DNA of 23,750 nucleotides. It comes from a virus (taxonomy: Duplodnaviria > Heunggongvirae > Uroviricota > Caudoviricetes). Within the stretch, counting starts at the first letter, position 1; the number at the start of each line of letters is the position of its first letter. Made by a program: the position numbers and the translations under genes. The notes beneath the pieces were generated by a model. The model was given only the letters and a program-made list of their open reading frames with translations. It was not told the DNA's origin and searched no databases. Shown here piece by piece: positions 1,029 to 21,134 of the stretch. Where the stretch lies: IMG/VR virus record IMGVR_UViG_2778261673_000009; one strand, written 5' to 3'.

Positions 1029-3362
1029 TCAGGTTGTTGCAGGGTCGTCACATTTTGGCAGCCAGTCGCCGTAGCTTTCCTCTTTCAGCGTCAGGTTGGT
1101 CTGTATCCCCTGTTTGGTATGGCGCTTCTCGTAATTCAGTCCGTATTCCTTCAGCATCACCGGCAGCCCCAGCCCGAACATTTTCAGACTGAGTACATTC
1201 CGGTAGCCGTTTGCCTCCATGTAGGCCAGATAGGCGTGATAGAGGTATTTACGGTAATTGCGCGGGATGATACTGGCGTTCCCCATATACATGCCGCTGG
1301 TCTGCGGCAGGGTTTCCAGATAGCCGATAAAATCAAACGTCGGGTCGGCATCCCGTTTGATGTTCAGCGCCTCGTCTGAGTTCTGCTGGGACTGAAGCAG
1401 TGACCGGGCGAGCATCGGGTCGCTGAACTTCTGCATCAGGTGACGCACGATGACCGCCAGCTCGCGGGTGATTTTGTCCTTGAGCTGCGGGTCGCGCTCC
1501 TGCGGGGCTATCTGTTCCGGGAAGTGAATAATCACCCGCCGGCGTGACACGCCGCCGCTGCGGTCGGTGAAGCGCATCGGGTTATTGTTCACGGCCAGAA
1601 TCACCGCCGGGATATGCGTGGAGTACGCATCCCGGTATTTCGGGTCAACGGACACCGCATCGCCGCCGGTGATGGCCTTGAGTCCGGCTCCGTCGCCGCT
1701 CCATTTTTCCTGGTCCGGCAGGCGTATCAGTGAGAAGCCAGTTAACGCGGCACGTTCACGCGGGGATTCCAGCGTCTCAATGGTGGCCGACGTGGCGTTA
1801 TCCTCCCCGGCCAGCAGGGTGGCTATTTCGGCCATGATACTTTTGCCGCTGCCGCCGGGACCGGTCACCTCCAGAAAGAGCTGCCAGTCGTAGCGGTTTG
1901 CCAGCACCATAAACAGTGCGGCCAGAATTACGTCGCGTTTTTCCGCACGACCACCGGCAGCACGGTCAAGCCAGCGCCAGAACGCGGGGGCGTGGGTTTC
2001 CAGCGTTTCCCCTTCCACCGGCGGGGTGAAATCCACATCGCACAGGGTGCGCATCCAGTGTGACGGACTGTGCGGGTGGAACGTGCCGTTCTGCGTGTCG
2101 AGCACGCCGTTACGAAAGCCAATCAGGCGGCGGGAGGGGGCTTCCTGCTGCGGAATAATCAGCTTCAGGGTGTCCACCACGGAGGCCACCTTCCCGGAGG
2201 AGAACGGCGCACGCAGCCGCTGAAACAGCCCGGCCACATCCCGGGCAAAGTCCTGTGGTGGCAGCACCTTCCAGACACCATTTTCATAACGGGACAGAAG
2301 CTGGCCGTTGGCATCGACCGCGAGCGCCTCGCCGTAATGCTCATAGATACGCATGGCCTTTTCGCTGGTACTCATGGCGGAAAACTCTGCTTCGCTCATG
2401 GTGTCGAACGGGCTTTCAGCCGGTGGCCGGATGGCATCGTAAATGGCCTTACGGGTGGCCTCCCCGCCGTACTGCGTGAAGGCATCATTCCAGTCACCGA
2501 AGACCGGCGGCAGGGCAACAACGCCCTCACACGCATCTGCGGCTGCGGCGGCTTTTTTCTGGCCGTCACCGCTGAGGTCACGGTCTGCGGCAAGGACAAT
2601 CTGACAGGCCGGATGCTTCTGCCGGGCAAGGCTGGCCAGAGAAAGGAGGTTCACGGAAGAAAGCGCCACCATCACCGTTTCACCGGTCAGGTGATGTACG
2701 GTAAGTGCGGTTGCGTATCCCTCCGCTATCCACAGACGTTTTCCGGCCTGATTCTGTCCTTCAAGGGTGTGACAGGTGCCCCTGACCTGTCCGCCTTTCA
2801 GGGTGCGCTTACGGCCGTCAGCACTGATTAACTGAAGGTTAACCAGTTCGCCGCTGTCGTCATACAGTGGCACCACAAGGTCACCGGCGCGCCAGCTCAC
2901 GCCACCGGCTCTGTGTGTGCCGGTCAGCATCCGGCATTCCCGGCCGGGAAAGCCCTTGCGGGTCAGGTAGGCGTTACCGGTTCCGGGACGGGTTTTTGCC
3001 ATCAGGGTTTGTGCCAGTGCGGCGGCGTTCTTCCGGGCGGCTTCTGTTTCAGCAACGGCGGCGGCCGTCACTGCCGGGTCAGCCGGGGGCAGACTGCCGG
3101 TCACGGCAGCCACCTTTGTGGCCGCGTCGGACGGGGAAACACCAAACACCTTTTCAACCAGTTTCAGGCCGTCACCGGCACCACACTGATTGCAGTACCA
3201 GGTGCCGCGCCCCTCCCTGTCATCAAAACGGAAGCGGTCACTCCCGCCACAGACCGGACAGGGCTGATGACGGTTCTTCAGCACCTGAATCCCCAGCGCC
3301 GGGAGAATACGCGGCCAGTGGCCGAGCGCATGGCTGACGGTGGCGGTTACGTTCATTTTCAT
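1029..3362 (-). CDS. alpha: P4 alpha-type replication protein (primase-helicase)
   Basis: 777-aa ORF, the same length as P4 alpha. N-terminal Cys-rich zinc-binding primase segment (CPVCGG...YCNQCG), flanked by both TGTTCACC iteron clusters. Plus-strand ORFs inside it are treated as antisense artefacts. Confidence 0.9.
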   Translation of the reverse strand: MKMNVTATVSHALGHWPRILPALGIQVLKNRHQPCPVCGGSDRFRFDDREGRGTWYCNQCGAGDGLKLVEKVFGVSPSDAATKVAAVTGSLPPADPAVTAAAVAETEAARKNAAALAQTLMAKTRPGTGNAYLTRKGFPGRECRMLTGTHRAGGVSWRAGDLVVPLYDDSGELVNLQLISADGRKRTLKGGQVRGTCHTLEGQNQAGKRLWIAEGYATALTVHHLTGETVMVALSSVNLLSLASLARQKHPACQIVLAADRDLSGDGQKKAAAAADACEGVVALPPVFGDWNDAFTQYGGEATRKAIYDAIRPPAESPFDTMSEAEFSAMSTSEKAMRIYEHYGEALAVDANGQLLSRYENGVWKVLPPQDFARDVAGLFQRLRAPFSSGKVASVVDTLKLIIPQQEAPSRRLIGFRNGVLDTQNGTFHPHSPSHWMRTLCDVDFTPPVEGETLETHAPAFWRWLDRAAGGRAEKRDVILAALFMVLANRYDWQLFLEVTGPGGSGKSIMAEIATLLAGEDNATSATIETLESPRERAALTGFSLIRLPDQEKWSGDGAGLKAITGGDAVSVDPKYRDAYSTHIPAVILAVNNNPMRFTDRSGGVSRRRVIIHFPEQIAPQERDPQLKDKITRELAVIVRHLMQKFSDPMLARSLLQSQQNSDEALNIKRDADPTFDFIGYLETLPQTSGMYMGNASIIPRNYRKYLYHAYLAYMEANGYRNVLSLKMFGLGLPVMLKEYGLNYEKRHTKQGIQTNLTLKEESYGDWLPKCDDPATT

Positions 3363-3376
3363 GGTGTTGTTCTCCT

Positions 3377-3697
3377 TCAGTGCAGTACCGGCGCTTTTAT
3401 GTGACGGGCACAGAGTTCATCCATCACAACCAGCCCGAGAAAGGACAGCGACGGCGCGGCCTTCAGGGGGCCGGATTCCATTAAATCTTCCAGCAGGGCA
3501 CAGGCTATCTGACGCCCTTTTTCCTCACCGTGCTGGCGCAGATAAAAGCCTTCCAGCTCAGCGGCGATGGCCGCCTCCAGTGACTCAAGGGTGAGATGCG
3601 GGTAGCGGTGCTGACGTTCGCACACGGTCAGCCAGGCACAGGCGACAGCGCGACGGTAAAGGGCAGCGCGTAAGACGGGCGGTAAGGGTGTTTTCAT
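3377..3697 (-). CDS. P4 orf106-like protein
   Basis: 106-aa ORF immediately upstream of alpha, matching the P4 orf106 position and length. Confidence 0.6.
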
Positions 3698-3832
3698 TTG
3701 CTTTCCTCCCTGTGACAGATGACTGCATTCCGTGCCGGTTGCATTAACTGATAAGGCATATCTGCGTCTCCTGAAGACGTGCGTATCCCTGCGCGAATAC
3801 GCACATTTAATTTTTCGGGTGTCGTTTTTTAA

Positions 3833-4288
3833 TTACAGATAATTGCGGTAACTGTTATCCGGGGTGGTTTCCGGGTCAGGCTCCGTGCGGGGAATTTCCC
3901 GCCATTCCCGCGCCACCGGTGCTGCCCGGCTGACCGGAACAGTGTCCTGCGGGTAAATATCCAGATATTTTTCCCGCCATTTCTGTAATTCCGGGTCTCC
4001 GGCCATTTCTTTCAGTACCGCATGCCGGTTTACGGGGCTGCGTTTAAACAGGTCAGGACGGTCACAGGTAAATTCCCGCAGAAAACGCCCCAGCGGGATG
4101 TCTGTGGTGCGTCCGTCAGCGAGGATACGCACAAGGATACTGAATTTACGGCGGTACGGGTTCCAGACAATGTCCGGGCAGCGGTACGGCATTTCCCACG
4201 GAATACCGTCTTCCAGAATGCCGACCACGGCCACATCGGGAAAACCGGCAGAACGGTAAATCTCACCGGGCTGGGGAAAATCAAACAT
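3833..4288 (-). CDS. P4 orf151-like protein
   Basis: 151-aa ORF in the P4 orf151 position, co-directional with alpha. Confidence 0.6.
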   Translation of the reverse strand: MFDFPQPGEIYRSAGFPDVAVVGILEDGIPWEMPYRCPDIVWNPYRRKFSILVRILADGRTTDIPLGRFLREFTCDRPDLFKRSPVNRHAVLKEMAGDPELQKWREKYLDIYPQDTVPVSRAAPVAREWREIPRTEPDPETTPDNSYRNYL

Positions 4289-4568
4289 GCGTCCTGTCTC
4301 CCCGGTCTTTCTGCTGGGCGAGAAAATCGCGGCACAGGCCTTTGGCTTTCAGCTCATTCAGCACAAAATCAATATCTTCATTCAGGTAGCTGAAAATATG
4401 CGGAATGTAGAGCTGATGCAGGCCGGAGAGTTCACGGTGAATCAAATCACCCCCAACAAACCGGGATACGGCGCTGGCGCGGTTGAGCTTATGGTAAGCC
4501 TCAATGCTGAGGTGTTCACGGGCGTCATGACGCGCTGAGACGGTCTGAGGGGCTTTTTTATTACGCAC
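4281..4568 (-). CDS. Epsilon-like small protein (95 aa, GTG start) in the P4 left operon
   Basis: The 190-aa ORF in the track has no credible start. An in-frame GTG at 4568 is preceded by GGAGG with a 6-nt spacer and gives a 95-aa product overlapping the orf151 start. The name is by synteny only. Confidence 0.4.
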
Positions 4569-4758
4569 GGGACACCTCCACCACCGGCAGACGGGCAGCA
4601 AGGGAGAGCACATAGTCACGGACAAGGGAACGGCGGGCGCTGCGTTCATCACCGGCGACGGTGCGAAGCATACAGATACGGGGATGACGGTCTGCGCGAC
4701 GGACAGCCGCAAACACAAAGACAAATTCAGGGTGTGAGGGGGTAAGGGTTGTAGCCAT
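4561..4758 (-). CDS. Small left-operon protein, 65 aa (kil-like position)
   Basis: ATG at 4758 preceded by AGGAGG (about 8-nt spacer). It is the 3' part of a longer track ORF with no credible upstream start. It ends 4 nt before the epsilon-like GTG. Confidence 0.4.
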
Positions 4759-5156
4759 GATGGCAGCCTCCTGTGAATAGCAAATAACGCTATCGCCGGA
4801 GTTCTCACGCTCGATGGCGATAGCCCAGACGGGGGTGAGAATACCGGCTTCACAGGATACCGGCCAGCCCGGAGGCTGCCCCGCCTGAGCTACCATTGAC
4901 TCTGCGGCATAATGAGCGGACGCGGGCAGGATGCACGGAATGCCATCTGCACGACTGACCACACACCACACCATAATCTGGCGCTCTGTGGCATTGATTG
5001 CGACACAAAAAAAGACGCGTGGCGCGTCATATGTCGCCTGTGAATTGCTCGGGTTCTCACGCCCGGCTGCCGATTTTGCGGCAGCGGAAAAACTATATCC
5101 GCAAATGCCGGAAAAAGGCAAGCCAGAAAAAGGGAGTTTTTGCAGAGCGGGCATCA

Positions 5157-5423
5157 TCATGCGTCGTACCCCCGTTTGCGTCCGGCAATGCGCCCGGCCA
5201 TCCATGCGGTGACTTCAGAGTGCAGCCAGGCCACATTTTTACCGCCAAGACTCACCTGCGGCGGAAATTCCCCCTTACGGATGAGTTCATAGATGGTCGA
5301 GCGTGACAGGCCGCACAGGTGCATCACTTCCGGAAGACGTAAAAAACGCTCCTGTGTGATGTCCGGCAGCGGCATCAGTGGCGTCACAGGGGCGGGAGAC
5401 GGGGAAGAAAAAACAGCTTGCAT
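5157..5423 (-). CDS. vis: AlpA/Vis-family DNA-binding regulator (88 aa)
   Basis: 88 aa with an AlpA-type helix-turn-helix ([28 protein letters not shown]). Matches the length and position of P4 orf88/vis, the first gene read leftward from the late-left promoter region. Confidence 0.8.
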
Positions 5424-5525
5424 CGGGCTACCTCGTTAATGTCCATACAGCACCGGATAAGTCCGTCCGGCTTCGGGTAGCGTTTTATTTTGTGAATATT
5501 TTCAGCAGACGCAACAGGGGGGATT

Positions 5526-5543
5526 TGTTCCGGCAGCCTTACA
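5526..5543 (-). promoter_or_regulatory. TGT-N12-ACA dyad (Delta/Ogr-type activator site), late-left promoter-like
   Basis: TGTTCCGGCAGCCTTACA, centred about 110 bp upstream of the vis start. This is the dyad typical of P2/P4 late promoters. Confidence 0.4.
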
Positions 5544-5567
5544 ATGCTTGTGTGTTTTTTGTTCATC

Positions 5568-5606
5568 TCCACTTAAAGTCATTTAAAGCCACTTAAAGCA
5601 ATTCGT
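5568..5606. repeat. Three tandem copies of CACTTAAAG-like motif
   Basis: CCACTTAAAGT CATTTAAAG CCACTTAAAG, read directly, between the late-left dyad and the iteron cluster. Confidence 0.4.
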
Positions 5607-5694
5607 AATTTTTATAGTGAAATACAAATCGTTTTTTCTTATTCATTCCCGGCGAATTAATAAAAACAAACAGTAATAAACAGCACAAAAAGCC

Positions 5695-5820
5695 CATCAA
5701 CGGGTGAACAGTGGTGAACAGACGGTGAACAGTCATTACTTCGATTGTTCACCCTTTAACTTACTGTATTACTTATCTTTTTTCTTATGGTGAACAGAGG
5801 TGAACAGAGGTGAACAGTAA
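5695..5820. repeat. ori-like iteron cluster: seven GGTGAACA/TGTTCACC octamers
   Basis: GGTGAACA at 5703, 5713, 5724, 5789, 5799 and 5809, with an inverted TGTTCACC at 5746. It lies about 4.8 kb from the crr-like repeats, comparable to the P4 ori1-crr spacing. Confidence 0.7.
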
Positions 5821-5895
5821 AATATAAAAAAACAAACAGTAAGCCGGTTTTTCCTGCGACCTTTTCCTGGCTTGCCGGTCTGAGGATGAGTCTCC

Positions 5896-5913
5896 TGTGT
5901 CAGGGCTGGCACA
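5896..5913 (+). promoter_or_regulatory. TGT-N12-ACA dyad, Psid-like late promoter activator site
   Basis: TGTGTCAGGGCTGGCACA, centred about 80 bp upstream of the sid ATG. Confidence 0.45.
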
Positions 5914-5985
5914 TCTGCAATGCGTCGTGTTGTTGTCCGGTGTACGTCACAATTTTCTCAACCTGAAGTGACGAGGAGCCGGAAA

Positions 5986-6720
5986 ATGTCTGACAACACC
6001 ATCCCTGAATATCTGCAACCCGCGCTGGCACAACTGGAAAAGGCCAGAGCCGCCCATCTTGAGAACGCCCGCCTGATGGATGAGACCGTCACGGCCATTG
6101 AACGGGCAGAGCAGGAAAAAAATGCGCTGGCGCAGGCCGACGGAAACGACGCTGACGACTGGCGCACGGCCTTTCGTGCAGCCGGTGGTGTCCTGAGCGA
6201 CGAGCTGAAACAGCGCCACATTGAGCGCGTGGCACGCCGGGAGCTGGTACAGGAATATGACAATCTGGCCGTGGTGCTGAATTTTGAACGTGAACGCCTG
6301 AAAGGGGCGTGTGACAGCACGGCCACCGCCTACCGGAAGGCACATCATCACCTTCTGAGTCTGTATGCAGAGCATGAGCTGGAACACGCCCTGAATGAAA
6401 CCTGTGAGGTGCTTGTCCGGGCAATGCATCTGAGTATCCTGGTACAGGAAAATCCGCTCGCCAACACCACCGGCCATCAGGGCTACGTCGCACCGGAAAA
6501 GGCTGTCATGCAGCAGGTGAAATCATCGCTGGAACAGAAAATTAAACAGATGCAAATCAGCCTCACCGGCGAGCCGGTTCTCCGGCTGACCGGACTGTCA
6601 GCGGCAACACTCCCGCACATGGATTATGAGGTGGCAGGCACACCGGCACAGCGCAAGGTGTGGCAGGACAAAATAGACCAGCAGGGTGCAGAGCTTAAGG
6701 CCAGAGGACTGCTGTCATGA
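5986..6720 (+). CDS. sid: Sid capsid size-determination (external scaffold) protein
   Basis: Taking the ATG at 5986 (GAGGAG 7 nt upstream) gives 244 aa starting MSDNTIPEYLQPALAQLEK, matching P4 Sid in length and N-terminus. Track ORFs antisense to it are rejected. Confidence 0.85.
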   Translation: MSDNTIPEYLQPALAQLEKARAAHLENARLMDETVTAIERAEQEKNALAQADGNDADDWRTAFRAAGGVLSDELKQRHIERVARRELVQEYDNLAVVLNFERERLKGACDSTATAYRKAHHHLLSLYAEHELEHALNETCEVLVRAMHLSILVQENPLANTTGHQGYVAPEKAVMQQVKSSLEQKIKQMQISLTGEPVLRLTGLSAATLPHMDYEVAGTPAQRKVWQDKIDQQGAELKARGLLS

Positions 6721-7217
6721 TTTACTGCCCGTCGTGTGGACATGTTGCTCACACCCGCCGCGCACATTTCATGGACGATGGCACCAAGATAATGATTGCA
6801 CAGTGCCGGAATATTTATTGCTCTGCGACATTTGAAGCGAGTGAAAGCTTTTTCTCTGACAGTAAAGATTCAGGAATGGAATACATTTCAGGCAAACAGA
6901 GATACCGCGATTCACTGACGTCAGCCTCCGGCAGTATGAAACGCCCGAAAAGAATGCTTGTTACCGGATATTGTTGTCGGAGATGTAAAGGCCTTGCACT
7001 GTCAAGAACATCGAGGCGTCTGTCTCAGGAAGTCACCGAGCGTTTTTATGTGTGCACGGATCCGGGCTGTGGTCTGGTGTTTAAAACGCTTCAGACCATC
7101 AACCGTTTCATTGTCCGCCCGGTCACGCCGGACGAACTGGCAGAAAGCCTGCATGAAAAACAGGAACTGCCGCCAGTACGGTTAAAAACACAATCATATT
7201 CGCTGCGTCTGGAATGA
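6717..7217 (+). CDS. delta: Delta late-gene transcriptional activator (duplicated Ogr-like zinc finger)
   Basis: 166 aa, as P4 Delta, with two Cys-rich Ogr-like halves (CPSCGH...C....C and CCRRC...C.DPGC). ATGA overlap with the sid stop. Confidence 0.85.
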   Translation: MIYCPSCGHVAHTRRAHFMDDGTKIMIAQCRNIYCSATFEASESFFSDSKDSGMEYISGKQRYRDSLTSASGSMKRPKRMLVTGYCCRRCKGLALSRTSRRLSQEVTERFYVCTDPGCGLVFKTLQTINRFIVRPVTPDELAESLHEKQELPPVRLKTQSYSLRLE

Positions 7218-7290
7218 GGGCTGCCGGTTAACCCCGGCCGTCGCCGCACACCGTATTTTTATTCTTCAGCATGATGAGAAAGAGATAACG

Positions 7291-7863
7291 ATGGAAAGCA
7301 CAGCCTTACAGCAGGCCTTTGACACCTGTCAGAATAACAAAGCAGCATGGCTGCAACGCAAAAATGAGCTGGCAGCGGCCGAACAGGAATACCTGCGGCT
7401 TCTGTCAGGAGAAGGCAGAAACGTCAGTCGCCTGGACGAATTACGCAATATTATTGAAGTCAGAAAATGGCAGGTGAATCAGGCCGCCGGTCGTTATATT
7501 CGTTCGCATGAAGCCGTTCAGCACATCAGCATCCGCGACCGGCTGAATGATTTTATGCAGCAGCACGGCACAGCACTGGCGGCGGCACTGGCACCGGGGC
7601 TGATGGGCTACAGTGAGCTGACGGCCATTGCCCGAAACTGTGCCATACAGCGTGCCACAGATGCCCTGCGTGAAGCCCTTCTGTCCTGGCTTGCGAAGGG
7701 GGAAAAAATTAATTATTCCGCACAGGATAGCGACATTTTAACGGCCATCGGATTCAGGCCTGACGCGGCTTCGGTGGATGACAGCCGTGAAAAATTCACT
7801 CCTGCGCAGAACATGATTTTTTCGCGTAAAAGTGCGCAACTGGCATCACATCAGTCTGTGTAA
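7291..7863 (+). CDS. psu: Psu polarity-suppression / capsid-decoration protein
   Basis: 190 aa, as P4 Psu, and the last gene of the sid-delta-psu operon. Confidence 0.85.
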   Translation: MESTALQQAFDTCQNNKAAWLQRKNELAAAEQEYLRLLSGEGRNVSRLDELRNIIEVRKWQVNQAAGRYIRSHEAVQHISIRDRLNDFMQQHGTALAAALAPGLMGYSELTAIARNCAIQRATDALREALLSWLAKGEKINYSAQDSDILTAIGFRPDAASVDDSREKFTPAQNMIFSRKSAQLASHQSV

Positions 7864-7940: not shown

Positions 7941-8027
7941 TGCCTCATTTTCTGCAAACCGCGCCATTCCCGGCGCGGTCTGAGCGCGTCAGTACAACTG
8001 CATTAAAACCGCCCCGCAAAGCGGGCG

Positions 8028-8046
8028 GGCGTGGCGGGGGGAGCAT
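8028..8046. other. cos-like cohesive-end site
   Basis: GGCGTGGCGGGGGGAGCAT matches the P2/P4 19-nt cohesive end (GGCGAGGCGGGGAAAGCAC, recalled from memory) at 15/19 positions. It lies about 165 bp past psu, as in P4, next to a GC-rich inverted repeat (CCGCCCCGC/GCGGGCGG). Confidence 0.55.
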
Positions 8047-8129
8047 TGCGCGCTAAGGCTGATATTATAATTTTCTTTAATTCTATTTGGTATTTTGGCT
8101 TTATTCGTCAGAAGGAACTTTTAGAAATA

Positions 8130-8157
8130 GACCACTACAATGGATTGTAGCGGTCTG
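8130..8157 (-). terminator. Inverted-repeat hairpin downstream of the cargo operon
   Basis: AGACCACTACAAT-GG-ATTGTAGCGGTCT (12/13-bp stem), 9 nt after the partner gene stop. The following minus-strand tract ATTTCTAAAAG is only weakly U-rich. Confidence 0.3.
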
Positions 8158-8165: not shown

Positions 8166-8906
8166 CTAGCGTTGCATTTCAGTTACTATGAAATTTTCTT
8201 CTGTAATAGAATTCATTATCTCAAAGTACAATTCTTCAGGTTGAATAAACGCCAACTCTTTGCAAAGGTTGACAATGGTATCACTATAAGTGATACCCAT
8301 CCGAGGATTGAAAAGCTCAAATCTCTTGATGTTTCTTTTGTTTTTTGAGTAAAAGTTTAAAGTGAAATATATTAGCACCTGTCTAAGATCGTAAACACTA
8401 AACTTCCTATCTCCTGATTTTATTTCCACAAGAACATTTGAATAATAAATATCGCCATATGAATTATTTATTACTCCGCATCCATCGAATTGTGGAGACA
8501 CTTCAATTTGGTTTTCCATTCCATATCGAGACAAAATGTTTCTTGCTATTTCCCTTATGGCATTGTACTCAACCATGCTTAAGGGTAGCTTGAAGTTAGA
8601 ACCGTAAGCGAACCGCTGTAGATATTCTTTTGTTTTTTCAAAAACAACCTGAAAATCAGCATTATGGAAGATATCATGTGCTGAAAGAATATTTCTGTCT
8701 AACGAATCATTCTGTATTGCCCTATATAAATTAAATGCGCACTCATTGACAAAGACGTTATTTGACCTATTAGCGCAGTCATCTAGAGGAGGATAAACGT
8801 CCTCGATGAGACTGCCGTTAATGATGCGTATGAAATTATTAGCATTTGGAAGCAATTGATTCCAAAATGAAGTGAATTTTCGAGAAAACGTTAATTCAGA
8901 TATCAT
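8166..8906 (-). CDS. Hypothetical 246-aa protein, partner of the reverse-transcriptase gene; possible PD-(D/E)xK-type nuclease
   Basis: AT-rich ORF whose ATG overlaps the RT stop (ATGA). It contains GDIYYSNVLVEIKSG, that is D-x9-E-x-K. The nuclease reading is motif-level inference only. Confidence 0.6.
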   Translation of the reverse strand: MISELTFSRKFTSFWNQLLPNANNFIRIINGSLIEDVYPPLDDCANRSNNVFVNECAFNLYRAIQNDSLDRNILSAHDIFHNADFQVVFEKTKEYLQRFAYGSNFKLPLSMVEYNAIREIARNILSRYGMENQIEVSPQFDGCGVINNSYGDIYYSNVLVEIKSGDRKFSVYDLRQVLIYFTLNFYSKNKRNIKRFELFNPRMGITYSDTIVNLCKELAFIQPEELYFEIMNSITEENFIVTEMQR

Positions 8907-10531
8907 AGCGCATCCTCAAGATTTCTTGCGGTATGCCTTTTACTTGCCCAATCCCTGTAAATCACCTCTACAAAGTTGAATGTTTTCTTATTATGCTCTC
9001 TCCAGTGCCGTCCTTCATCACCTAAGATGTAACTGGAAACGATCAATAGTCTTCTCTGCAACGGATGCATTGCAGAGAAATTTTTTTTGATATCAGAAAG
9101 CCATGCGTAAGAATTAATTTTTGCCATTGACTGTGTAACTATGTTCTTGACTAAGATGCTTTCTGGATTGTTATTGTATATTTCACTAAGGATTAGGGTG
9201 GATTTTTCTGAATTTTCTTTTGAGAGCATTCGGGCTACATAGGCTAAGTTGAGCTCAGTACTCAAAATATATGAATCTTGTTTAATTAGTGCAGTTATTT
9301 TATCAAGAATAATATCTTTGGTTTCTGTGCTTAATTTTTGCCAGTTGGAGTTAGCTACTTGAATTATAGTTGTAAATATTGGATATAACTCATGCAAGTT
9401 ATTAAACATTACTTTGAAAGCACTACTTATTATTTCATCTGATGTTGCTGAGAATGCCTTTATCAAATGCTTGCTAAAAGATTGGTTAATTTTTGATTTT
9501 TGTAACTCACTACTCAGCATAGCTAACAAGTCAAAATCTTTTAAAGATTCCTTTATCTCTTCATATTCCTCTATCGCATTTGCTGAGTAAGGATCGAATC
9601 TTATAGGAAGACTCATAAATTTAGCCTTCATAGGAGATTCTTCATCTTCATCATTACCATGCAACTTAGCTTTAGTTACTGAAAGGAACTCTTCTTTAGT
9701 AACAATATTGGTTTTTTGTTTCTGTAAAGTTAGCCCTTCATTTTCCATCAGTTTTTTACTAAGCAAAGTTAAAATCTTATGAGCATCCTCTCTAGAGTTA
9801 CAAAAAATAACAAAGTCGTCGACATAACGCTTATAGTTGATTCTATTCATAGACAATAATTTATCAATAGAATCTAGAGCTAGTTCTGCTAATATTCTAG
9901 AGGCAGGACATCCAACTGGTACTCCATATGATTTTGTTTCACTAAATGTCTGTAGTAATTTCTTGATTTTCCCAGAGTAATCTTTATTGGGGTCTACTCT
10001 ATCTAACGCATTTTCTAAACGGTGGTGATAAATACGCGGATAGAAATCTGCTATATCGCATGTAAGTACATACTTTATTTCATCGTTAGAACATTCAGAG
10101 ATACTGTCTTCTTGATATTTTCTCCAAGAGATCTCTTTATCAAAAAGAGAACCATCAGCAAGGTTTGGTTTAAAGCGATATGAATAAACCTGCGTTTTAG
10201 TAGATCTATTCCTTTCAATATCATCAGCGATTTTTAAAACTAACCCAAGAAAAAAAGCATTCCAGAATGGATCAATTTGGGTCGCCCACCTGTAACCATA
10301 ATAACCAATACTTGAAAAGCTATTAATTATGTTTGGTGGAATCTCGATCCTTTTATTTTCAAAGTCATTAAATGTTTGCATTAATGCAGTTTTTACTTTC
10401 TCCTTATCATCTTCAAATAACCGACTTTCAAATGGGTAAGGGAAAATATCTGTATCGCCGTGCTTTATAATATTTTCCAATGCAAGCTCAAAGCAATTTT
10501 CTAGTTTACTACTATCAAACTCGTTACTCAT
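8903..10531 (-). CDS. Reverse-transcriptase-domain protein with a long alpha-helical C-terminal extension (Abi/DRT-like architecture)
   Basis: 542 aa with RT motifs read directly: CDIADFYPRIYHHRL (motif A-like), YGVPVGCPASRILAELAL (motif B-like) and YKRYVDDFVIF (YxDD catalytic motif, encoded near 9811-9822). About 250 C-terminal residues lie beyond the RT core. Strongly AT-rich relative to its neighbours. Confidence 0.85.
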   Translation of the reverse strand: MSNEFDSSKLENCFELALENIIKHGDTDIFPYPFESRLFEDDKEKVKTALMQTFNDFENKRIEIPPNIINSFSSIGYYGYRWATQIDPFWNAFFLGLVLKIADDIERNRSTKTQVYSYRFKPNLADGSLFDKEISWRKYQEDSISECSNDEIKYVLTCDIADFYPRIYHHRLENALDRVDPNKDYSGKIKKLLQTFSETKSYGVPVGCPASRILAELALDSIDKLLSMNRINYKRYVDDFVIFCNSREDAHKILTLLSKKLMENEGLTLQKQKTNIVTKEEFLSVTKAKLHGNDEDEESPMKAKFMSLPIRFDPYSANAIEEYEEIKESLKDFDLLAMLSSELQKSKINQSFSKHLIKAFSATSDEIISSAFKVMFNNLHELYPIFTTIIQVANSNWQKLSTETKDIILDKITALIKQDSYILSTELNLAYVARMLSKENSEKSTLILSEIYNNNPESILVKNIVTQSMAKINSYAWLSDIKKNFSAMHPLQRRLLIVSSYILGDEGRHWREHNKKTFNFVEVIYRDWASKRHTARNLEDAL

Positions 10532-11708
10532 TCACATTCTCCTTAATAAAAATATAATCTGAATACCACTGCATCATATCACGGCGTTTATCAATATATT
10601 GAGCATGATTATACGTACCTCTAATATTATTCTTATCTATATGAGCAAGCTGTATTTCTATCCAAGCCGAATCATATCCTTTTTCGTGGAGGATAGTAGA
10701 TAAGGAATGTCGAAATCCATGACCAGTAAGTTTTCCACCATAACCAATACGCTTGATAACTTGGTTAATACTCGCCTCACTCATAGGCTTGTTCGGATCG
10801 TTCCGCCCCGGAAAAACATAACTATACTTCCCTGTCATCATCTTGAGTTCATTTAGCAAATCTAACGCTTGAGTCGACAAAGGCACAAGGTGTGATCTGC
10901 GCATTTTCATCCTTTCAGCAGGAATTTCCCAAATAGCGTTATCTAAATCAAATTCTGACCATAATGCCGCACGTAATTCGATGGTTCTAACACCTGTAAT
11001 CATGAGCAATTTCGTGGCAATCAGGACAAGCCGACTTCCGGTATATCCGTTTAAGGCGCGAAGAAAATCAGGTATCTCATTAGCCTTTAAGAACGGGAAA
11101 TGATTTGATTGGTGTACATTGAGGGCGCTTGAAAGATCCGCAGCAGGGTTAAACTCAGCCCTTCCAGTAGCAATGGCATAGCGGAAAACTTCTGAGCATC
11201 GCTGCCGAACTTTGCGCATTTTTTCTAATGCACCGCGCTTTTCGATTTTACGCAGCACATTAAGCAGTTCTAGCGGTTTAATCTCTCCCACTGGCCTTGT
11301 TCCCACATAAGGAAAAATGTCGTTCTTAAACGCTTCCATGATGTCTGATGCATATCCCGCCGACCATTTGGTAGACTTCTGTTGATGCCACTCTCTGGCT
11401 ATCTTTTCGAAGGCGTTCTCTGACTCTGTTTGCAGAGCCAGCTTTTGCTCTTTTCGAACCTCACTAGGGTTCTTTCCTTCTGCCACAAGTTTTCGAGCTT
11501 CATCACGACGGGAACGAGCATCAGCAAGAGTGATCGTTGGGTAAACACCAAGCGAGATCATTTTGGGTTTACCGGCATAGCGATAACGAAATCGCCAGCT
11601 TTTACTTCCATTTGGCTCTACAAGTAAAGACAACCCTTGCCCATCCCCAAGTGTATAGGCTTTAGCTTCAGGTTTAGCACGGCGAATCTGCATATCATTT
11701 AGGGGCAT
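10524..11708 (-). CDS. int: P4-family tyrosine integrase
   Basis: 394 aa with a typical P4-type integrase N-terminus (AKPEAKAYTLGDGQGLSLLVEPNGSKSWRFRYRY) and a C-terminal catalytic region (HGFRHSLSTIL...). It is adjacent to the putative att core. The true start may be the second Met, 15 nt downstream. Confidence 0.9.
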   Translation of the reverse strand: MPLNDMQIRRAKPEAKAYTLGDGQGLSLLVEPNGSKSWRFRYRYAGKPKMISLGVYPTITLADARSRRDEARKLVAEGKNPSEVRKEQKLALQTESENAFEKIAREWHQQKSTKWSAGYASDIMEAFKNDIFPYVGTRPVGEIKPLELLNVLRKIEKRGALEKMRKVRQRCSEVFRYAIATGRAEFNPAADLSSALNVHQSNHFPFLKANEIPDFLRALNGYTGSRLVLIATKLLMITGVRTIELRAALWSEFDLDNAIWEIPAERMKMRRSHLVPLSTQALDLLNELKMMTGKYSYVFPGRNDPNKPMSEASINQVIKRIGYGGKLTGHGFRHSLSTILHEKGYDSAWIEIQLAHIDKNNIRGTYNHAQYIDKRRDMMQWYSDYIFIKENVNE

Positions 11709-11872
11709 GTGTATAGAATTCCAAAATCGAACAGGAACATATACATAATCCTATACACATTTAGTACTGGATTCTACTGGAAAGTTATGGACTAATACGA
11801 ACAGTAAAAACAAAAAATCTTTTATAAAACAGTGCGGTTATGGATAAATACGGATGTTTGAAGAAGTGGAGA

Positions 11873-11890
11873 TGGTGCCGATAATAGGAG
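11873..11890. repeat. Putative attachment-site core, junction copy next to int (ATGGTGCCGATAATAGGA)
   Basis: Direct repeat of 546-563, about 165 bp upstream of the int start. The nearby sequence carries TATACACA-type motifs (11712-11760), also seen inside the other end (620-641), as expected for integrase arm sites. Confidence 0.45.
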
Positions 11891-12033
11891 TAAAACACTC
11901 GATTAATCTCGTGTTAATGCCATCACCTACGACTATTACTAATTGATTGAATCTTATAGAAAAATAATCATTTTCTATGCGTCACAATCAATTTTCACAT
12001 TACAAACGCTCCGACACTTTAGCCGGAGATTTT

Positions 12034-13311
12034 ATGAGATACAAGCCTAACCAATACTTAATCTGTGATTCTTACGGTAACTACTATTTAAGGATCACGC
12101 TGCCTGTGTATATGCAGCCCTTTTTTGAAGGAAAAAGGACGTTTGTCAGAAGTCTACACACAAGTAATCTTCGTGTTGCACGTAGAAAGCGTGATCAGAT
12201 TGCAGATGAATACCATTGCTTACGGGAGAGTGTTGCCCCTGTAAACAGCACAATAGAAAACACGCTGGAACTGTTACGCAGTAAGGCTAAATACGCCAAA
12301 ACAGCTACCAGAGTGCAAGATACAGCGTCTTCGTGTCCGTCATTGCTTAAAATTCTTGAAATCTACCTGACAATTAACAGCACGAAGAAGAAGCCAGCCA
12401 CTTTAGCTAAGGCAAGAAAAGCGGTAGAGATGTTTCTCTCCTACCGTAAAAAGCCTGATATTGCATTGCAAGATGTAAGCCGCACCACTGTTACAGGCTG
12501 GATTGAACACATGCAAAAAACTCTTTCACAACAATCAATTGCAAATTATATCAGCCCAATGGCCCAGCTATGGGAGTTAGCTTCATCACGTTACCACGAT
12601 GCGCCAGAAAGGGCGCTCTCCCCCTGGCGAGGGCATAGGCTTGATGTGGCACAAAGTAGAGAGAGCTACGAGGCATTTTCTAACAAAGAGCTATTGCAGG
12701 TGTTGCAAGTATTTTCCGGTAATTCAGCAGAAAACAAAGAAATGACGGCTTTGTGTCTTATCGGTTTATATACAGGTATGCGGATCAATGAGATAGCAAG
12801 TCTCACAATAGACGATGTGAAAGAGATCGAAGGTGTGCTGTGTTTTGAAATCACACAGGGAAAGACGAAAGCAGCGGCACGTGTTGTGCCTGTACATAGC
12901 CTTATCACTCCGTTGGTGTTGTCGCTGCGTGAAAAGCCTCACAATGGCTTTTTGTTCTATCACGCCAGCATTACAGAGCGTGCTGATGGTAAACGTTCCA
13001 CGTGGCATACGCAGAGATTTACAAGAGCTAAACGAAAGGCTTTAGGGGAAAAGGGAACAGAAAGGAAGGTGTTTCATTCTCTGAGACACGGAGTAGCACA
13101 GCTTCTTGATCGAAATCAAATTCCAGAAGACAGGATCGCCCTTCTCCTGGGCCATACACGCGGCAATACAGAAACATTCCGCACATATAGCAAAAATGCA
13201 GCTTCTCCAGTAGAGCTTAAAAAATATATTGAGCTTTTACGCTACCCTGAAATAGAGAAAGGCTTATCAATCAATAAAAAATCAAATTTAAGGCGTAAAA
13301 CAACGCCATAG
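12034..13311 (+). CDS. Tyrosine recombinase / phage-type integrase of a second element
   Basis: Catalytic motifs visible: TGMRINEI, HSLRHGVAQLL and LLGHTRGNTETFRTYS. The track's longest ORF begins at 11977, but the ATG at 12034 has a GGAG Shine-Dalgarno 6 nt upstream and is preferred. Confidence 0.8.
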   Translation: MRYKPNQYLICDSYGNYYLRITLPVYMQPFFEGKRTFVRSLHTSNLRVARRKRDQIADEYHCLRESVAPVNSTIENTLELLRSKAKYAKTATRVQDTASSCPSLLKILEIYLTINSTKKKPATLAKARKAVEMFLSYRKKPDIALQDVSRTTVTGWIEHMQKTLSQQSIANYISPMAQLWELASSRYHDAPERALSPWRGHRLDVAQSRESYEAFSNKELLQVLQVFSGNSAENKEMTALCLIGLYTGMRINEIASLTIDDVKEIEGVLCFEITQGKTKAAARVVPVHSLITPLVLSLREKPHNGFLFYHASITERADGKRSTWHTQRFTRAKRKALGEKGTERKVFHSLRHGVAQLLDRNQIPEDRIALLLGHTRGNTETFRTYSKNAASPVELKKYIELLRYPEIEKGLSINKKSNLRRKTTP

Positions 13312-13392
13312 ACGTAATAAGGAGGCTTCAACATAGATTGGTAGCCTCTTTTATAATTACATCGTTACAGAGCGTTTCATAGGCGTTTAAGG

Positions 13393-14070
13393 CTATTGTT
13401 TAAATACTGGTGTTACAACGTCTTGCCCTGGGCTTTTTTGATTTTTCTGTTCTGTTGTATTTACCTGCATTTTAACCTGTCCCCCTACAGATTTATTTGG
13501 TGCTGTTTTTACAGCAATAGCATTAGTGGTGGCCTTAGAGACAAGACGAATTTGCTCAAAATCAAGAGTAAACAATATGCTTTCGCTTGCTTCTTCTTCG
13601 TAAGACATGCCAACTAACACAACGTTGTCATAATTTTTTAACTCAGTGACAAGTAGGAAAGGTTGGCGACTGTCCATCAACTGATTTAGGTATTCAAGCA
13701 TAAGCATACGTCGATTGCCGTTAATTCCAGCATTCTTAATCATATCAGGATTGAGCTTCAATACGGTTTCAGAGATACGCCCTTGTAATGTGAACTTGTT
13801 ATTCCGTATTTGAACATGATCACTAACTTCTGATCCTGATTCGACAGCATAGCTTGTAACGTCTGCATTTCTGCTAACTCTCGTCGATTCCACGCTATCA
13901 AATGATAATGCCTGGTAGTCATTGTAAGCAGCATTTGCACCACTGCCGAGATTAGAGGTAATGATCGCAAAGCCGTTACCCCCTTTAGTTGTTCTACCGT
14001 TGCTATCGTTGCTTGTGCTGTTGATTTTCGCCTCAGTCGGGCGACCAATGGTTAACGGACCCATTGCCAT
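13393..14070 (-). CDS. Hypothetical 225-aa protein, last gene of the structural-type operon
   Basis: ORF with AAGGA about 9 nt upstream of the ATG, co-directional with the upstream genes. No recognisable motif. Confidence 0.55.
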   Translation of the reverse strand: MAMGPLTIGRPTEAKINSTSNDSNGRTTKGGNGFAIITSNLGSGANAAYNDYQALSFDSVESTRVSRNADVTSYAVESGSEVSDHVQIRNNKFTLQGRISETVLKLNPDMIKNAGINGNRRMLMLEYLNQLMDSRQPFLLVTELKNYDNVVLVGMSYEEEASESILFTLDFEQIRLVSKATTNAIAVKTAPNKSVGGQVKMQVNTTEQKNQKSPGQDVVTPVFKQ

Positions 14071-14117
14071 AATTTGTAATCCTTATTTAAGGGGGCTAAA
14101 CAGCCCCACAGTGATGA

Positions 14118-15959
14118 TTAATAGGTTGACCCGCCTGACATAACACCCAGCGTTAATAGCTTGCTAAACTCAGCGGAGGATGCCTTTGATTTGAAGTCGA
14201 TAAATTCGCTCAATCGTCCGGTGTCTGATTCGATAGTTAGCGGCACTTCTGCATTTACTTGTAATTCTGGATTGAAGTTAATAACAGGTGCAAAGGTGTA
14301 AGAAGGAGCCTTGAAAGCTTGTTGTGCTGCACTCTGTTTCAGATTTGCAATGTTTTGTCCTTCGAGACTGTATTGATTTACAGCCTGCGCCCCACCTACC
14401 GTTTCTTCTGGCATAAACCAGCTTTTAATAGTGTTAACCAGGGAATTGCTGTTATCTGGCTTAGTTGTTCCGGTGCCAGCGCCTTTATATTGATCAGGAG
14501 TGAGATTAGAAAGATTCTGCTTCATTCCTTCGTTAGATAGTGGCGGTGCATCACCTAAATTCTTCTGAATAGCTGCCGTCTTCTCGTCGTTTTTCATCAG
14601 CCAGTTGATTGTTTTCATTACGGCGTTAACCAATCCGCCGATAGCCTCGCCTAATTTGGTAAACATTGGCAGCATTGCAACCATGCTCTTTTTAAACTCT
14701 TCAATCACTTTCGGATCAAGAGATTTCATAAAGCCATCAACAAAGGCGATCCCTTGTGAGTCAGAAAGCCCACTAAGTGCATTATTCAGTTCACGGAATT
14801 TAATAACGCTTTCCTGTTGTGCCTGTGTTACCCAGCGCCCTGATTCTCGTTGTTCTCGTGCTGATTGTTCCACTTCTTTAGCGGAGCGTGTCCAGTATTT
14901 AGAGGTGAGCATCAAATCATCAGCCAGATCTTCCAGACGACTACCGATTTGTGCATCTGAATAGCCTTTAGCTACCATTCCCTGAACTGCTTTACTAACC
15001 AGACCAGCCGGATTATCAGCAAAGTCTTTTAGATCCTTTTTAGTTAGGAATCCTTCATTCATTAAAGTATTGATGCCGCTATCGCCGCCCTTCCATTCGC
15101 CTTTCCCTGTTTTCTTATCGACTACATATTCAGCCTCATCATAGCTTTTGGTTGCACGCTCACGCACATCTTTCATCTGATCGAGATACTTACGTTTACC
15201 TTGATCCCCCATCATTGAATCAACGCCGTTTTTATACGCCCATTGCTCAATATTGTTCATCTGGTTAACGTCTACACCGCCCAGCTTCGCACGGCTATAC
15301 AATTCTCCCAGCGTTTCAGCACTGGCAAAGCTGTTAGTAACAAATTCAGAGGCTTTGCTCATAGCCATATACGTAGCGCCAGCGCCTAAGCCACCCAGCA
15401 TAACAGCCGCAGCACCGCCGCCAATACTCCCGCTACCCTTAACAGGTGCATAGGCTTTAGCGTGAGCGTTACGATTGCCATTAATCTTACGTTGTTGCTG
15501 TTGTAGGCGTTTCATTTGGCTATTCATACGTGCCAGACTAATAGCGCCTCTTTCATATTGGAGGGCAATTTCTCTAGCCTGTGCAATAGCTTTATATTGT
15601 TCCGCTACAGAAAGACGGTGCATTGCACTAATGCTTGATCCAACGTCTAAAAGCTTTAAGTCTGCCTTCTCTTTGCGTGCTGCCAGGGCTTTTTGTTCTC
15701 TTGCAACTACACGTTGAGCGGCTAATTGTGCTTTAGCATTAGCTTTATCAGCCTGTGCTTGCTTTTTAGCAATATCGTCTACGTCTTTTTTTGCTTTAGC
15801 GGTTGATTGTTTATGTGTCTTAACACGCAATTCTATATCTTTCACAGCCGCCATTTGTTTACGAAGTTTTTCTACTTCTGCTTTTGCTTTCTCTAATGAT
15901 GGTCGATCAACCTGGAAGGTGACAACGTTTGATAAGCGGCTGACGGTAAGGTCTAACAT
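14118..15959 (-). CDS. 613-aa protein with N-terminal coiled-coil region and Gly-rich hydrophobic segment (tape-measure-, ejection- or scaffold-like)
   Basis: The N-terminal 150 aa are rich in K/A/E/Q heptad-like sequence, followed by GSGSIGGGAAAVMLGGLGAGATYMAM and then a long polar region. The functional class is inferred from composition only. Confidence 0.65.
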   Translation of the reverse strand: MLDLTVSRLSNVVTFQVDRPSLEKAKAEVEKLRKQMAAVKDIELRVKTHKQSTAKAKKDVDDIAKKQAQADKANAKAQLAAQRVVAREQKALAARKEKADLKLLDVGSSISAMHRLSVAEQYKAIAQAREIALQYERGAISLARMNSQMKRLQQQQRKINGNRNAHAKAYAPVKGSGSIGGGAAAVMLGGLGAGATYMAMSKASEFVTNSFASAETLGELYSRAKLGGVDVNQMNNIEQWAYKNGVDSMMGDQGKRKYLDQMKDVRERATKSYDEAEYVVDKKTGKGEWKGGDSGINTLMNEGFLTKKDLKDFADNPAGLVSKAVQGMVAKGYSDAQIGSRLEDLADDLMLTSKYWTRSAKEVEQSAREQRESGRWVTQAQQESVIKFRELNNALSGLSDSQGIAFVDGFMKSLDPKVIEEFKKSMVAMLPMFTKLGEAIGGLVNAVMKTINWLMKNDEKTAAIQKNLGDAPPLSNEGMKQNLSNLTPDQYKGAGTGTTKPDNSNSLVNTIKSWFMPEETVGGAQAVNQYSLEGQNIANLKQSAAQQAFKAPSYTFAPVINFNPELQVNAEVPLTIESDTGRLSEFIDFKSKASSAEFSKLLTLGVMSGGSTY

Positions 15960-15993
15960 ACTGATTGTTTCCCTGTATTATGATTGTTGTTTG

Positions 15994-16191
15994 TTATTGT
16001 TTTTTAGAACAATAATATTGGATTGCTTCGAAAGTGCTGCACCCGGTCTGAAACACACGCTGCCGCACATTATTTGCATCAATTGAAAGCATTCTGCATA
16101 AGGCACTGACATTGATTATTGAGTCATCGCTAATAGCTGCCAGTTCTTTTACAGATTTAAGAATTAATGCCTGTGAATTTTCTGTGTTCAT
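15994..16191 (-). CDS. Small hypothetical protein (65 aa)
   Basis: ORF with a weak ribosome-binding site between the capsid-like gene and the 613-aa gene. Confidence 0.3.
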   Translation of the reverse strand: MNTENSQALILKSVKELAAISDDSIINVSALCRMLSIDANNVRQRVFQTGCSTFEAIQYYCSKKQ

Positions 16192-16355
16192 TGGTTTTCT
16201 CTCACATATATATTTTTATTTGGATTTGTAGACAGTAGAAAAACAAAAAGGGCAAAGAGATTCGTTACTGTATTTGCGCCTACAGGTTAGTTAATCTCCT
16301 TACCCTTATTGCCCCCCGATTATTTCCAGACGTAGGGGAACGTCTTTAACACTTT

Positions 16356-17384
16356 TTACGCTACTGTGATCTGCACAGAGAAGCCAACACCGTGGTTAAC
16401 CACAAGCGAGCTATTCTCGGTCACTACGTGCACTGCGTCGCCGCGATTCGATTCGAAAGCATAGCTGTAATACTCTTTAGCGCCTTGAGACAGCAGATCG
16501 AAGGAACTGGAAGGCGCGCCATAGATAGCTTGGTAAACACCTCCACCCTTAGCGAATTTAGGCACGGCTACAGCGTCAGCGGTCATATGTGCCAGCAGCA
16601 GCGGATCAGTCACTTTGATCAGATCAATGTTAGTTCCTGGAATGGTGAAAGTAGTTACGCCAGGCAGCAGAGAACGCACATTAAACACCACGTTTGCATC
16701 GTCTACAGGGCTTGCATATTGGAACGCATTGACCATGCCAACGCTGTAACGAATAGCGTTGAATGCCGCAGGTTTACAGAACACAACAACACGCTCAATG
16801 GTTGCAGCCTGGCTTTGTGCCTTAGCAATCATATCCGTATGCATCTGATCAAATTGCTTGAATACGGTCATTGTGTTGGTGCTGGATGCGTCAACGGTTG
16901 CAGTCATTGGAGACACACCGAACAGAGTGCTGTAATCGATCAGAACATCGTCAGTTTTCGGCGTATGTGTCTTGCCAGAGAACAGAGAAGCCGCGAGGAT
17001 GCTTTCTTTAGTGCGCTGGAATGCAACATTGTGTTTAGCGATATATTCCGCATACAGATCCGGCAGTGTTTCTTCAATAGAGCTTCCGGCTTTGCGTTTG
17101 CCTTGCACGTCCTGCGGTTTGATCAGGTCTTCACGCAGGAAGTAAGGGATTTCAATCAGCCATTCTTCCCCGTTCTCACGCTTAGTAACGTTATGCTCAG
17201 AGCTAAAACGGCTTGTAGGATGGTTGAACAGAGATTCATTGCTCTCGATAAGCTGGGAAACAGCCACTTTGTGACTTTCTACAGGCACAGGATCAGTAAA
17301 ATCCAGAGTAGACAGTAGGTAATTGCGTGAGTCGTTTAATTCGAACAGTGGAGCAAGATCAACCACTTCATTTCCGATAATCAT
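16356..17384 (-). CDS. Putative major capsid protein, lambda gpE-like
   Basis: 342 aa, essentially the length of lambda E-family capsid proteins. C-terminus ...GFSVQITVA resembles the E-family C-terminal motif as recalled. Preceded by a 124-aa gene, like the lambda D-E pair. GAAGGA lies 10 nt upstream of the ATG. Confidence 0.5.
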   Translation of the reverse strand: MIIGNEVVDLAPLFELNDSRNYLLSTLDFTDPVPVESHKVAVSQLIESNESLFNHPTSRFSSEHNVTKRENGEEWLIEIPYFLREDLIKPQDVQGKRKAGSSIEETLPDLYAEYIAKHNVAFQRTKESILAASLFSGKTHTPKTDDVLIDYSTLFGVSPMTATVDASSTNTMTVFKQFDQMHTDMIAKAQSQAATIERVVVFCKPAAFNAIRYSVGMVNAFQYASPVDDANVVFNVRSLLPGVTTFTIPGTNIDLIKVTDPLLLAHMTADAVAVPKFAKGGGVYQAIYGAPSSSFDLLSQGAKEYYSYAFESNRGDAVHVVTENSSLVVNHGVGFSVQITVA

Positions 17385-17400
17385 TATTATTTATTCCTTC

Positions 17401-17775
17401 TTAAGATGTGAAAACAGAGTGGAAGCCTTCAAGCTGGAAGCCTTTAGCAGCGAGAGCTGCAATAGCAGCTTCTTTTACAGCGCCTTCGGCATTCAGGGCA
17501 TCAGCTTTGATGCAAACGAGTCCGGCATTAGCACGAAGCACGTTAACTGTTTTATTTGAATCAGCAGTTACGAAGTCAGACACAACGACAAGAACATCAG
17601 CGCCGCTAACATATTTAGCGCCGGATGAATCAATGAGGTCGCCGCACGTTACATCTTGTGCAAGTGCTGCAAATTTTTTGCTTTCTACAGCCGCGTAAGG
17701 GTCGGTTGCATAGCTCACTACGTCAGTGATGCTTTTACGATGTGGGAAAACATCGCTTAATTTTAAAATAGCCAT
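17401..17775 (-). CDS. Putative head-decoration-like protein (124 aa)
   Basis: Small Ala/Val/Gly-rich protein immediately upstream of the capsid-like gene. Strong AAGGA ribosome-binding site. Start overlaps the stop of the upstream gene (TAATG). Function assigned by position and size only. Confidence 0.4.
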   Translation of the reverse strand: MAILKLSDVFPHRKSITDVVSYATDPYAAVESKKFAALAQDVTCGDLIDSSGAKYVSGADVLVVVSDFVTADSNKTVNVLRANAGLVCIKADALNAEGAVKEAAIAALAAKGFQLEGFHSVFTS

Positions 17776-17984
17776 TATTTTTCCTTAGATTGTTTGATTT
17801 GTTGAGCTTTAGCATTAATCAAATCTTGGTGAGATGGTTTATTGCTGTCAGCCTTATAAAGACGTTCACACTGTTTCTTTAATTCTGTAGGAGTGATGCC
17901 AAGCGCGTAGGCTGTAGCATTCAACACATCCTCAGTTAGTGTTAACTTTTCATTGCCATATTTCAGGATAATTTCTTGTTTCAT
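17775..17984 (-). CDS. Small hypothetical protein (69 aa), first gene of the structural-type operon
   Basis: ORF translationally coupled (TAATG) to the 124-aa gene. Weak ribosome-binding site. Confidence 0.45.
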   Translation of the reverse strand: MKQEIILKYGNEKLTLTEDVLNATAYALGITPTELKKQCERLYKADSNKPSHQDLINAKAQQIKQSKEK

Positions 17985-18013
17985 AAAATAACGATTCCGT
18001 TATGTTCCGAGTA

Positions 18014-19502: not shown

Positions 19503-19560
19503 TATTTTTCCTTTTTTTGAATATTTTCATTGGGCGCTTATACATACGCCCATCATTTTA

Positions 19561-20310: not shown

Positions 20311-20319
20311 TTATTCTCC

Positions 20320-21113: not shown

Positions 21114-21134
21114 AGTTTTCTCCTTCTCCTGTTA

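Follow-up and report, generated by a model that had tools for sequence, protein, structure and literature searches.

Does the small protein encoded directly behind a reverse transcriptase (RT) gene in a record of the Caudoviricetes (IMGVR_UViG_2778261673_000009) belong to the nucleases, and what would such a nuclease do beside an RT? The window, that is, the whole stretch of 23,750 nucleotides that was analysed, supplies the position numbers used throughout. An earlier note, made from the sequence alone, had proposed that this RT partner has a restriction-endonuclease-like catalytic core and that the two proteins form a defence module.

The nuclease gene and its surroundings

An ORF check of the window placed the 246-aa reading frame at 8166..8906 on the minus strand; the earlier note had named no strand. 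The plus strand across 8166-8906 had many stops and no open frame. The following features belong to the gene and to its downstream side:

8166..8906, minus strand: PD-(D/E)xK nuclease gene, second component of DRT8 (PADLOC "RTasPDDEXK"; cluster 17 of Mestre et al.)
8472..8489, minus strand: F140-D-G142-C143-G144-V segment, upstream of the catalytic hairpin (conservation)
8412..8456, minus strand: catalytic core motif G151-D152-x8-E161-x-K163-S-G (alignment of 133 sequences and secondary structure of the model)
8451-8453, 8424-8426 and 8418-8420, minus strand: codons of D152, E161 and K163, respectively
8367..8381, minus strand: QxxxY motif, Q176-V-L-I-Y180 (conservation; helix 171-185 of the model)
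8129..8156, minus strand: 12-bp hairpin, 10 nt past the nuclease stop codon, followed by AUUUCU (RNA fold)
8009..8028, minus strand: second, GC-rich terminator-like hairpin, CCGCCC...GGGCGG followed by TTTT, at the boundary of the low-GC cargo

The hairpin at 8129..8156 had a folding energy of -17.3 kcal/mol (z -6.0), a stability that was reached by none of 200 shuffles, and is the probable terminator of the operon. At the second hairpin (8009..8028) the GC content stepped from 32% to 61%.

The catalytic motif and its conservation

The catalytic segment, GDIYYSNVLVEIKSG, comprises residues 151-165 (window 8412-8456) and lies just beyond the midpoint of the protein. It had been described as a D-x9-E-x-K motif in the C-terminal half of the protein, preceded by FDGCGV. 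Its three residues and its placement were as described (FDGCGV at residues 140-145 and the motif at residues 151-165 of 246), but the spacing was wrong, as eight residues separate D152 from E161 and the motif therefore reads D-x8-E-x-K. By itself the motif is no evidence for a nuclease, because shuffles of the same protein produced the loose pattern D-x5-30-[DE]-x-K in 58% of cases and the strict D-x8-E-x-K in 3.4%. The extended pattern GD-x8-ExK-x8-20-QxxxY was found in none of 5000 shuffles.

When 1.84 billion cluster representatives were searched with a profile, 1025 clusters were recovered at E<=1e-3, and 133 of the best cluster representatives were aligned (22-85% identity, mean column identity 35%). 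Seven residues (D152, K163, Q176, Y180, W15, G142 and N200) were invariant in this alignment. E161 was kept in 132 of the 133 sequences, G151 in 120, and position 175 was occupied by R or K in 129. Among 48 homologues with 33-89% identity, D152, E161 and K163 were all invariant. Loss of the motif residues among homologues would have spoken against a catalytic role; they were instead retained down to 22% identity. The columns of the FDGCGV segment were also largely conserved in the 133 homologues (F140 in 128, G142 in 133, C143 in 124 and G144 in 131). Position 141, by comparison, was P, A, K or S in homologues. D141 is not conserved and is therefore not the catalytic aspartate, and we rejected it as the aspartate of the "PD" signature.

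Further conserved elements were found outside the catalytic motif. The first four residues of the nuclease, M-I-S-E (window 8895-8906), were invariant in the 48 homologues, and M and I were present in at least 90% of the 133. W15 and the segment N200-P-R-x-G204 were invariant or nearly so and are particular to the DRT8 nuclease.

Predicted fold and nuclease class

The AF2 model of the nuclease had a pLDDT of 91.6 and a pTM of 0.89, and contained a predicted alpha-beta-beta-beta-alpha-beta PD-(D/E)xK core. In the model D152 stands at the start of strand 153-155 and E161-x-K163 on, or just after, strand 158-162, the two strands forming a beta-hairpin. The helix that directly follows the ExK strand (residues 171-185) carries Q176 and Y180. 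Judged by secondary structure and motif order, the aspartate falls on the second core strand and the (D/E)xK element on the third.

Three structure searches were consistent in that each returned nuclease matches. Against the PDB, Foldseek matched Dna2 with a probability of 0.97-0.99 and Cas4 with 0.77, the best E value being a weak 1.4e-3. Against BFVD it gave 18 matches at E<=1e-3, among which were UvrD-type proteins (helicases or helicase-nucleases), an exonuclease of the Cas4 family and PD-(D/E)XK nucleases. The predicted fold, taken from the AF2 model and the Foldseek matches, is thus that of the PD-(D/E)xK nucleases and not an unrelated one.

Searches at the sequence level gave little. 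Pfam and NCBIfam scans of the nuclease returned nothing significant, and a Pfam scan of its 133 relatives returned no nuclease family, with Cas_Cas4 and PDDEXK_1 both unmatched. Profile searches of the PDB sequences with the 48- and 133-sequence alignments yielded nothing beyond spurious matches to helical proteins (interferon gamma and designed proteins, E >= 0.2). An hhalign comparison of the family profile with two single sequences, lambda exonuclease and the nuclease domain of E. coli RecB, showed no signal (probability 0.2%). The sole Cas4-type profile signal was a match to the PADLOC Cas4a2 model (E 0.021). Since matches to curated families and PDB sequences are absent, the assignment as a nuclease rests on predicted structure, at 7-15% identity to the structural matches. 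To RecB/AddA/AdnAB, MGME1, Dna2, RecE and lambda exonuclease the identity was 7-13%, with no profile-level sequence match.

The QxxxY motif is a mark of the RecB/Cas4-type nuclease clade. The four-cysteine set that would hold an Fe-S cluster, as in Cas4, AddB, Dna2 and Exo5, was not found in the family: among the 133 homologues only the C143 column was more than 90% cysteine, the other cysteine-rich columns reached 38-70%, and two of these (149 and 181) are not cysteine in the nuclease of the window. Cas4 proper was rejected for this missing cluster. The model supports a RecB/Cas4/MGME1-type PD-(D/E)xK nuclease without an Fe-S cluster. The restriction-endonuclease-like core of the earlier note holds insofar as the protein is predicted to be a PD-(D/E)xK nuclease, but its nearest relatives are DNA-end nucleases of the RecB/Cas4/MGME1 type, with QxxxY, and not type II restriction enzymes.

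The DRT8 nuclease differs from these relatives in its setting. It is small, stands alone and is paired with an RT instead of being fused to a helicase. It lacks the four-cysteine Fe-S cluster of Cas4, and it differs from Cas4 and the Argonaute-associated Cas4-family protein ACE1 in its partner, which is an RT and not Cas1-Cas2 or an Argonaute.

Residues 145-217 of the nuclease (window 8256-8474) also matched PDC-S61, a PADLOC model of a candidate system (E 8.8e-6), so another candidate defence system may use a nuclease module related to this one.

The reverse transcriptase and its pairing with the nuclease

The protein had been called an RT partner, and the gene preceding it does encode an RT: a 542-aa RVT_1 protein with a YVDD motif, which lies at 8903..10531 on the minus strand and overlaps the nuclease start by 4 nt. 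The features of this gene and of the junction are:

8903..10531, minus strand: 542-aa UG7 / Drt8 reverse transcriptase, Class 1 UG/Abi (PADLOC Drt8; Pfam RVT_1)
9815..9826, minus strand: RT catalytic motif, Y236-V-D-D239 (sequence)
8913..8917, minus strand: GAGGA, resembling a Shine-Dalgarno sequence, 6 nt ahead of the nuclease ATG (junction sequences)
8903..8906, minus strand: ATGA overlap of the RT stop TGA and the nuclease start ATG (sequence; recurs in other loci)

The Pfam RVT_1 match had an E value of 1.2e-18, and V237, D238 and D239 were invariant in 16 RTs. PADLOC matched the RT to Drt8 (E 4.9e-166) over positions 4-492 of the 493 in the profile, reaching residue 532 of 542, an indirect sign of the C-terminal alpha-helical repeat (alphaRep) domain that Class 1 UG/Abi RTs have; the next-best model was UG21 (E 1.2e-37). 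The nuclease matched RTasPDDEXK (PDLC03797; E 5.5e-69) over positions 1-224 of 226. No DRT8 protein was found in the PDB sequence set, where the closest solved relatives of the RT included UG15/DRT4 (E 1e-10) and AbiK.

The ATGA overlap suggests that translation of the nuclease is coupled to that of the RT. The GAGGA element before the nuclease start lies within the RT codons for a conserved C-terminal LE(E/D)AL. We found 15 loci in a species-level genome collection, and all of them were compared. They came from Citrobacter, Brenneria, Oceanimonas, Aeromonas, Marinobacter, Vreelandella, Lysobacteraceae, Moraxellaceae, Thalassospira and MAGs labelled Planctomycetales, Alphaproteobacteria and Oscillospiraceae. 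Across the 15 loci the RT was 34-97% identical to that of the window and ended at the nuclease ATG or at most about 30 nt from it, and every nuclease start read ATGA. The (A/G)TGA overlap was present in 15 of 15 genome loci, in four further loci (one of them identical to a genome locus) and in three short contigs. The four further loci, which hold distant homologues (Pseudoalteromonas, Thalassospira and two metagenomic contigs), had an RVT_1 gene of about 545 aa with a 4-nt overlap with the nuclease start. The three short contigs represent still more distant members and carried a C-terminal RT fragment together with the overlap. As the same pairing was found in all loci examined, the RT and the nuclease form a conserved and probably translationally coupled unit.

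On the contig of the most distant homologue (1568-4081), a gene for a GmrSD-type restriction enzyme (DUF262/DUF1524-like) directly follows the RT-nuclease pair, which fits a defence-island setting.

Assignment to DRT type 8

The pair is a member of DRT type 8, an already described system that consists of a UG7 RT and a PD-(D/E)xK protein. The two-gene architecture, the near full-length matches to both PADLOC models, the YVDD motif and the D/ExK residues are all shared, and no difference from DRT type 8 was detectable. The proposal of a defence module is upheld by the PADLOC call of the pair as Drt8 and RTasPDDEXK.

The passages on UG7 in Mestre et al. (2022, NAR 50:6084, PMC9226505) describe two variants of these RTs. 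Variant 1, with 150 members, is tied there to "cluster 17", which has remote PD-(D/E)XK homology, and the other variant is presented with no associated nuclease. The nuclease may therefore be accessory in part of the family. According to the same passages, UG7 reconstituted in E. coli K-12 gave robust protection against T5 and was named DRT type 8, and mutations in the catalytic domain of the RT or in the PD-(D/E)XK active site abolished immunity. The substitution of the active-site residues that the earlier note had proposed thus has a published counterpart in a homologous UG7 system, where, as Mestre et al. report it, the PD-(D/E)XK mutants lose defence. UG7 is also placed in PMC9226505 in the variable regions of P2-phage and P4-like satellite genomes, and the present pair, as far as that description goes, agrees with it in occupying the variable region of a P4-like satellite.

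DRT4 (UG15) and AbiK, both single-gene systems, resemble DRT8 in using a Class 1 UG/Abi RT against phages. They act without a dedicated nuclease, whereas DRT8 requires one.

The satellite and the genomic setting

The RT-nuclease pair is carried by a P4-like satellite of E. coli, with psu on one side and int on the other. The satellite and the neighbouring element comprise the following features:

1029-3362, minus strand: 777-aa primase-helicase ORF of the P4-like satellite, which occupies the left part of the window (1029-7863)
4813-4900: C4 antisense RNA (Rfam)
5008-5085: isrK (Rfam)
5046-5098: c4-a1b1 (Rfam)
6717-7217: delta-like zinc-finger ORF
7291..7863, plus strand: psu, polarity suppression protein, at one flank of the cargo (Pfam Psu, E 4.8e-88)
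10524..11708, minus strand: P4-type tyrosine integrase, bounding the cargo opposite psu (Pfam Arm-DNA-bind_3, Phage_int_M and Phage_integrase; annotated in RefSeq at an identical locus)
11977-13311, plus strand: second integrase (DUF6538 and Phage_integrase)
13393-14070: Dit-like tail protein, prophage-like remnant
14118-15959: 613-aa ORF, prophage-like remnant
16356-17384: major capsid protein E, prophage-like remnant

The GC content of the pair was 28-41%, against 55-62% in the satellite backbone. This contrast, together with the position between psu and int, indicates that the pair is exchangeable cargo of the psu-int site. Low GC (30-35%) also continued into int, over roughly the last 200 nt of the gene (window 10524-10750). 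The cargo either has its boundary within this gene or carries the gene's 3' end along.

The end of int and the start of the RT gene share 8 nt, and there is consequently no upstream room for a non-coding RNA of the DRT2/DRT9 kind. Rfam gave no RNA family near the RT-nuclease pair, and its only matches in the window were the C4, isrK and c4-a1b1 of the satellite. A promoter scan found 14 candidates where 14.2 were expected by chance, and gave no convincing promoter of the RT's own.

The 2.4-kb pair was carried by 105 of 5426 complete E. coli genomes (about 2%), chromosomally in all of them; in 104 complete genomes of the species its identity was at least 99%. In E. coli 2013C-4974, whose locus is 100% identical, the order was primase-helicase, DUF5375, Icd-like, HTH regulator, hypothetical, delta-like and psu, then nuclease and RT, then integrase, tRNA-Thr and proA. 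No tRNA gene was found in the window; in 2013C-4974 the same int has tRNA-Thr within 165 nt, followed by proA. In E. coli EN-1077 (NZ_CP159209.1, 902976-906602) the RT-nuclease locus was otherwise 99.9% identical but was split in two, and the annotation has an IS3-family transposase within it; this copy is apparently disrupted.

The remainder of the window (11709-23750) resembles another mobile element, placed in tandem with the satellite. Its integrase and the remnant ORFs had no matches to PADLOC models.

Proposed mechanism and alternatives

The protein is best explained as the nuclease subunit of DRT8, with a RecB/Cas4/MGME1-type core, expressed together with the RT as satellite cargo and acting as the effector. 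We consider this explanation as a whole likely. In the model D152 and E161-x-K163 on the beta-hairpin would hold the catalytic metal. The genes int, RT and nuclease would form one minus-strand operon, in which the nuclease would be made together with the RT.

The mode of action can be sketched from relatives of the RT. UG7 falls in Class 1 of the UG/Abi RTs. The ssDNA that DRT4 synthesises is protein-primed and template-independent (PMC12783706), and its 3' end is shielded from host exonuclease by the phage protein ORF55, and protein-primed untemplated ssDNA synthesis has been hypothesised for AbiK. By analogy the Class 1 RT of DRT8 may also make protein-primed, untemplated ssDNA. DNA synthesis by the RT would then sense the infection or license the response, and the nuclease would execute it: on infection it would cut DNA with single-stranded ends (that of the phage, or of both phage and host), and phage replication would stop. 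We favour this effector model because the characterised Class 1 RTs make ssDNA and because ssDNA ends or flaps are what the enzymes structurally nearest to the nuclease work on. For the specific step of RT-made ssDNA followed by execution through the nuclease, we see roughly even chances.

The same fold and the same pairing could also belong to a processing enzyme, in the way that Cas4 trims prespacers or ACE1 works for its Argonaute partner. The nuclease would trim or release the protein-primed ssDNA of the RT, or turn the ends of phage DNA into RT substrates, and defence would come from the DNA so processed or from the RT complex. We regard such a role as possible but doubtful. In its narrower form, which we advance equally tentatively, processing would take place in a fixed complex with the RT, and the processed DNA product, not bulk degradation by the nuclease, would be the source of the defence. 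Under this reading M-I-S-E and N-P-R-x-G would mark a surface for docking the RT or for handling the product. Against this stand the wording of Mestre et al. (PMC9226505), who call the PD-(D/E)XK protein the effector on genetic grounds, and the stand-alone Class 1 RTs DRT4 and AbiK, which need no dedicated nuclease. The RT product that would be processed in DRT8 is itself reasoned from relatives.

Returning to the effector model, two further objections touch the activity of the nuclease itself. Its fold might have been kept while the active site became inert, leaving a protein that binds DNA as a sensor or serves the RT as a scaffold, comparable to the nuclease-like but dead domain in RecC. 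This is very improbable, because the catalytic residues are invariant and a mutant phenotype has been published: D, ExK and QxxxY persist over 133 diverged sequences (with E161 in 132), which is unusual for inactivated domains, and active-site mutations are described as abolishing defence in the homologous system (PMC9226505). A chance motif in a protein without any nuclease fold, for which the frequency of the loose and strict patterns among shuffles (58% and 3.4%) and the missing Pfam and NCBIfam matches could be cited, is excluded by the high-confidence model with its nuclease matches in three structure searches, the invariance of the motif residues, the extended motif (0 of 5000 shuffles) and the RTasPDDEXK profile of PADLOC (E 5.5e-69).

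Significance

A reader working from the sequence only had correctly picked out a defence nuclease. DRT type 8 was defined and genetically validated in 2022, and the finding as such was already known. The present analysis adds detail to it. The DRT8 nuclease is placed in a RecB/MGME1/Cas4-like clade, in which the enzymes of solved structure work on DNA ends; it has the QxxxY motif and lacks the Fe-S cluster. Judging from the gene junctions, it is probably coupled in translation to its RT in every locus examined, in distant bacteria. A near-identical copy is carried on a P4-like satellite in about 2% of complete E. coli genomes. D152, E161, K163, Q176 and Y180 are concrete residues for biochemistry, with ssDNA ends and flaps as candidate substrates.
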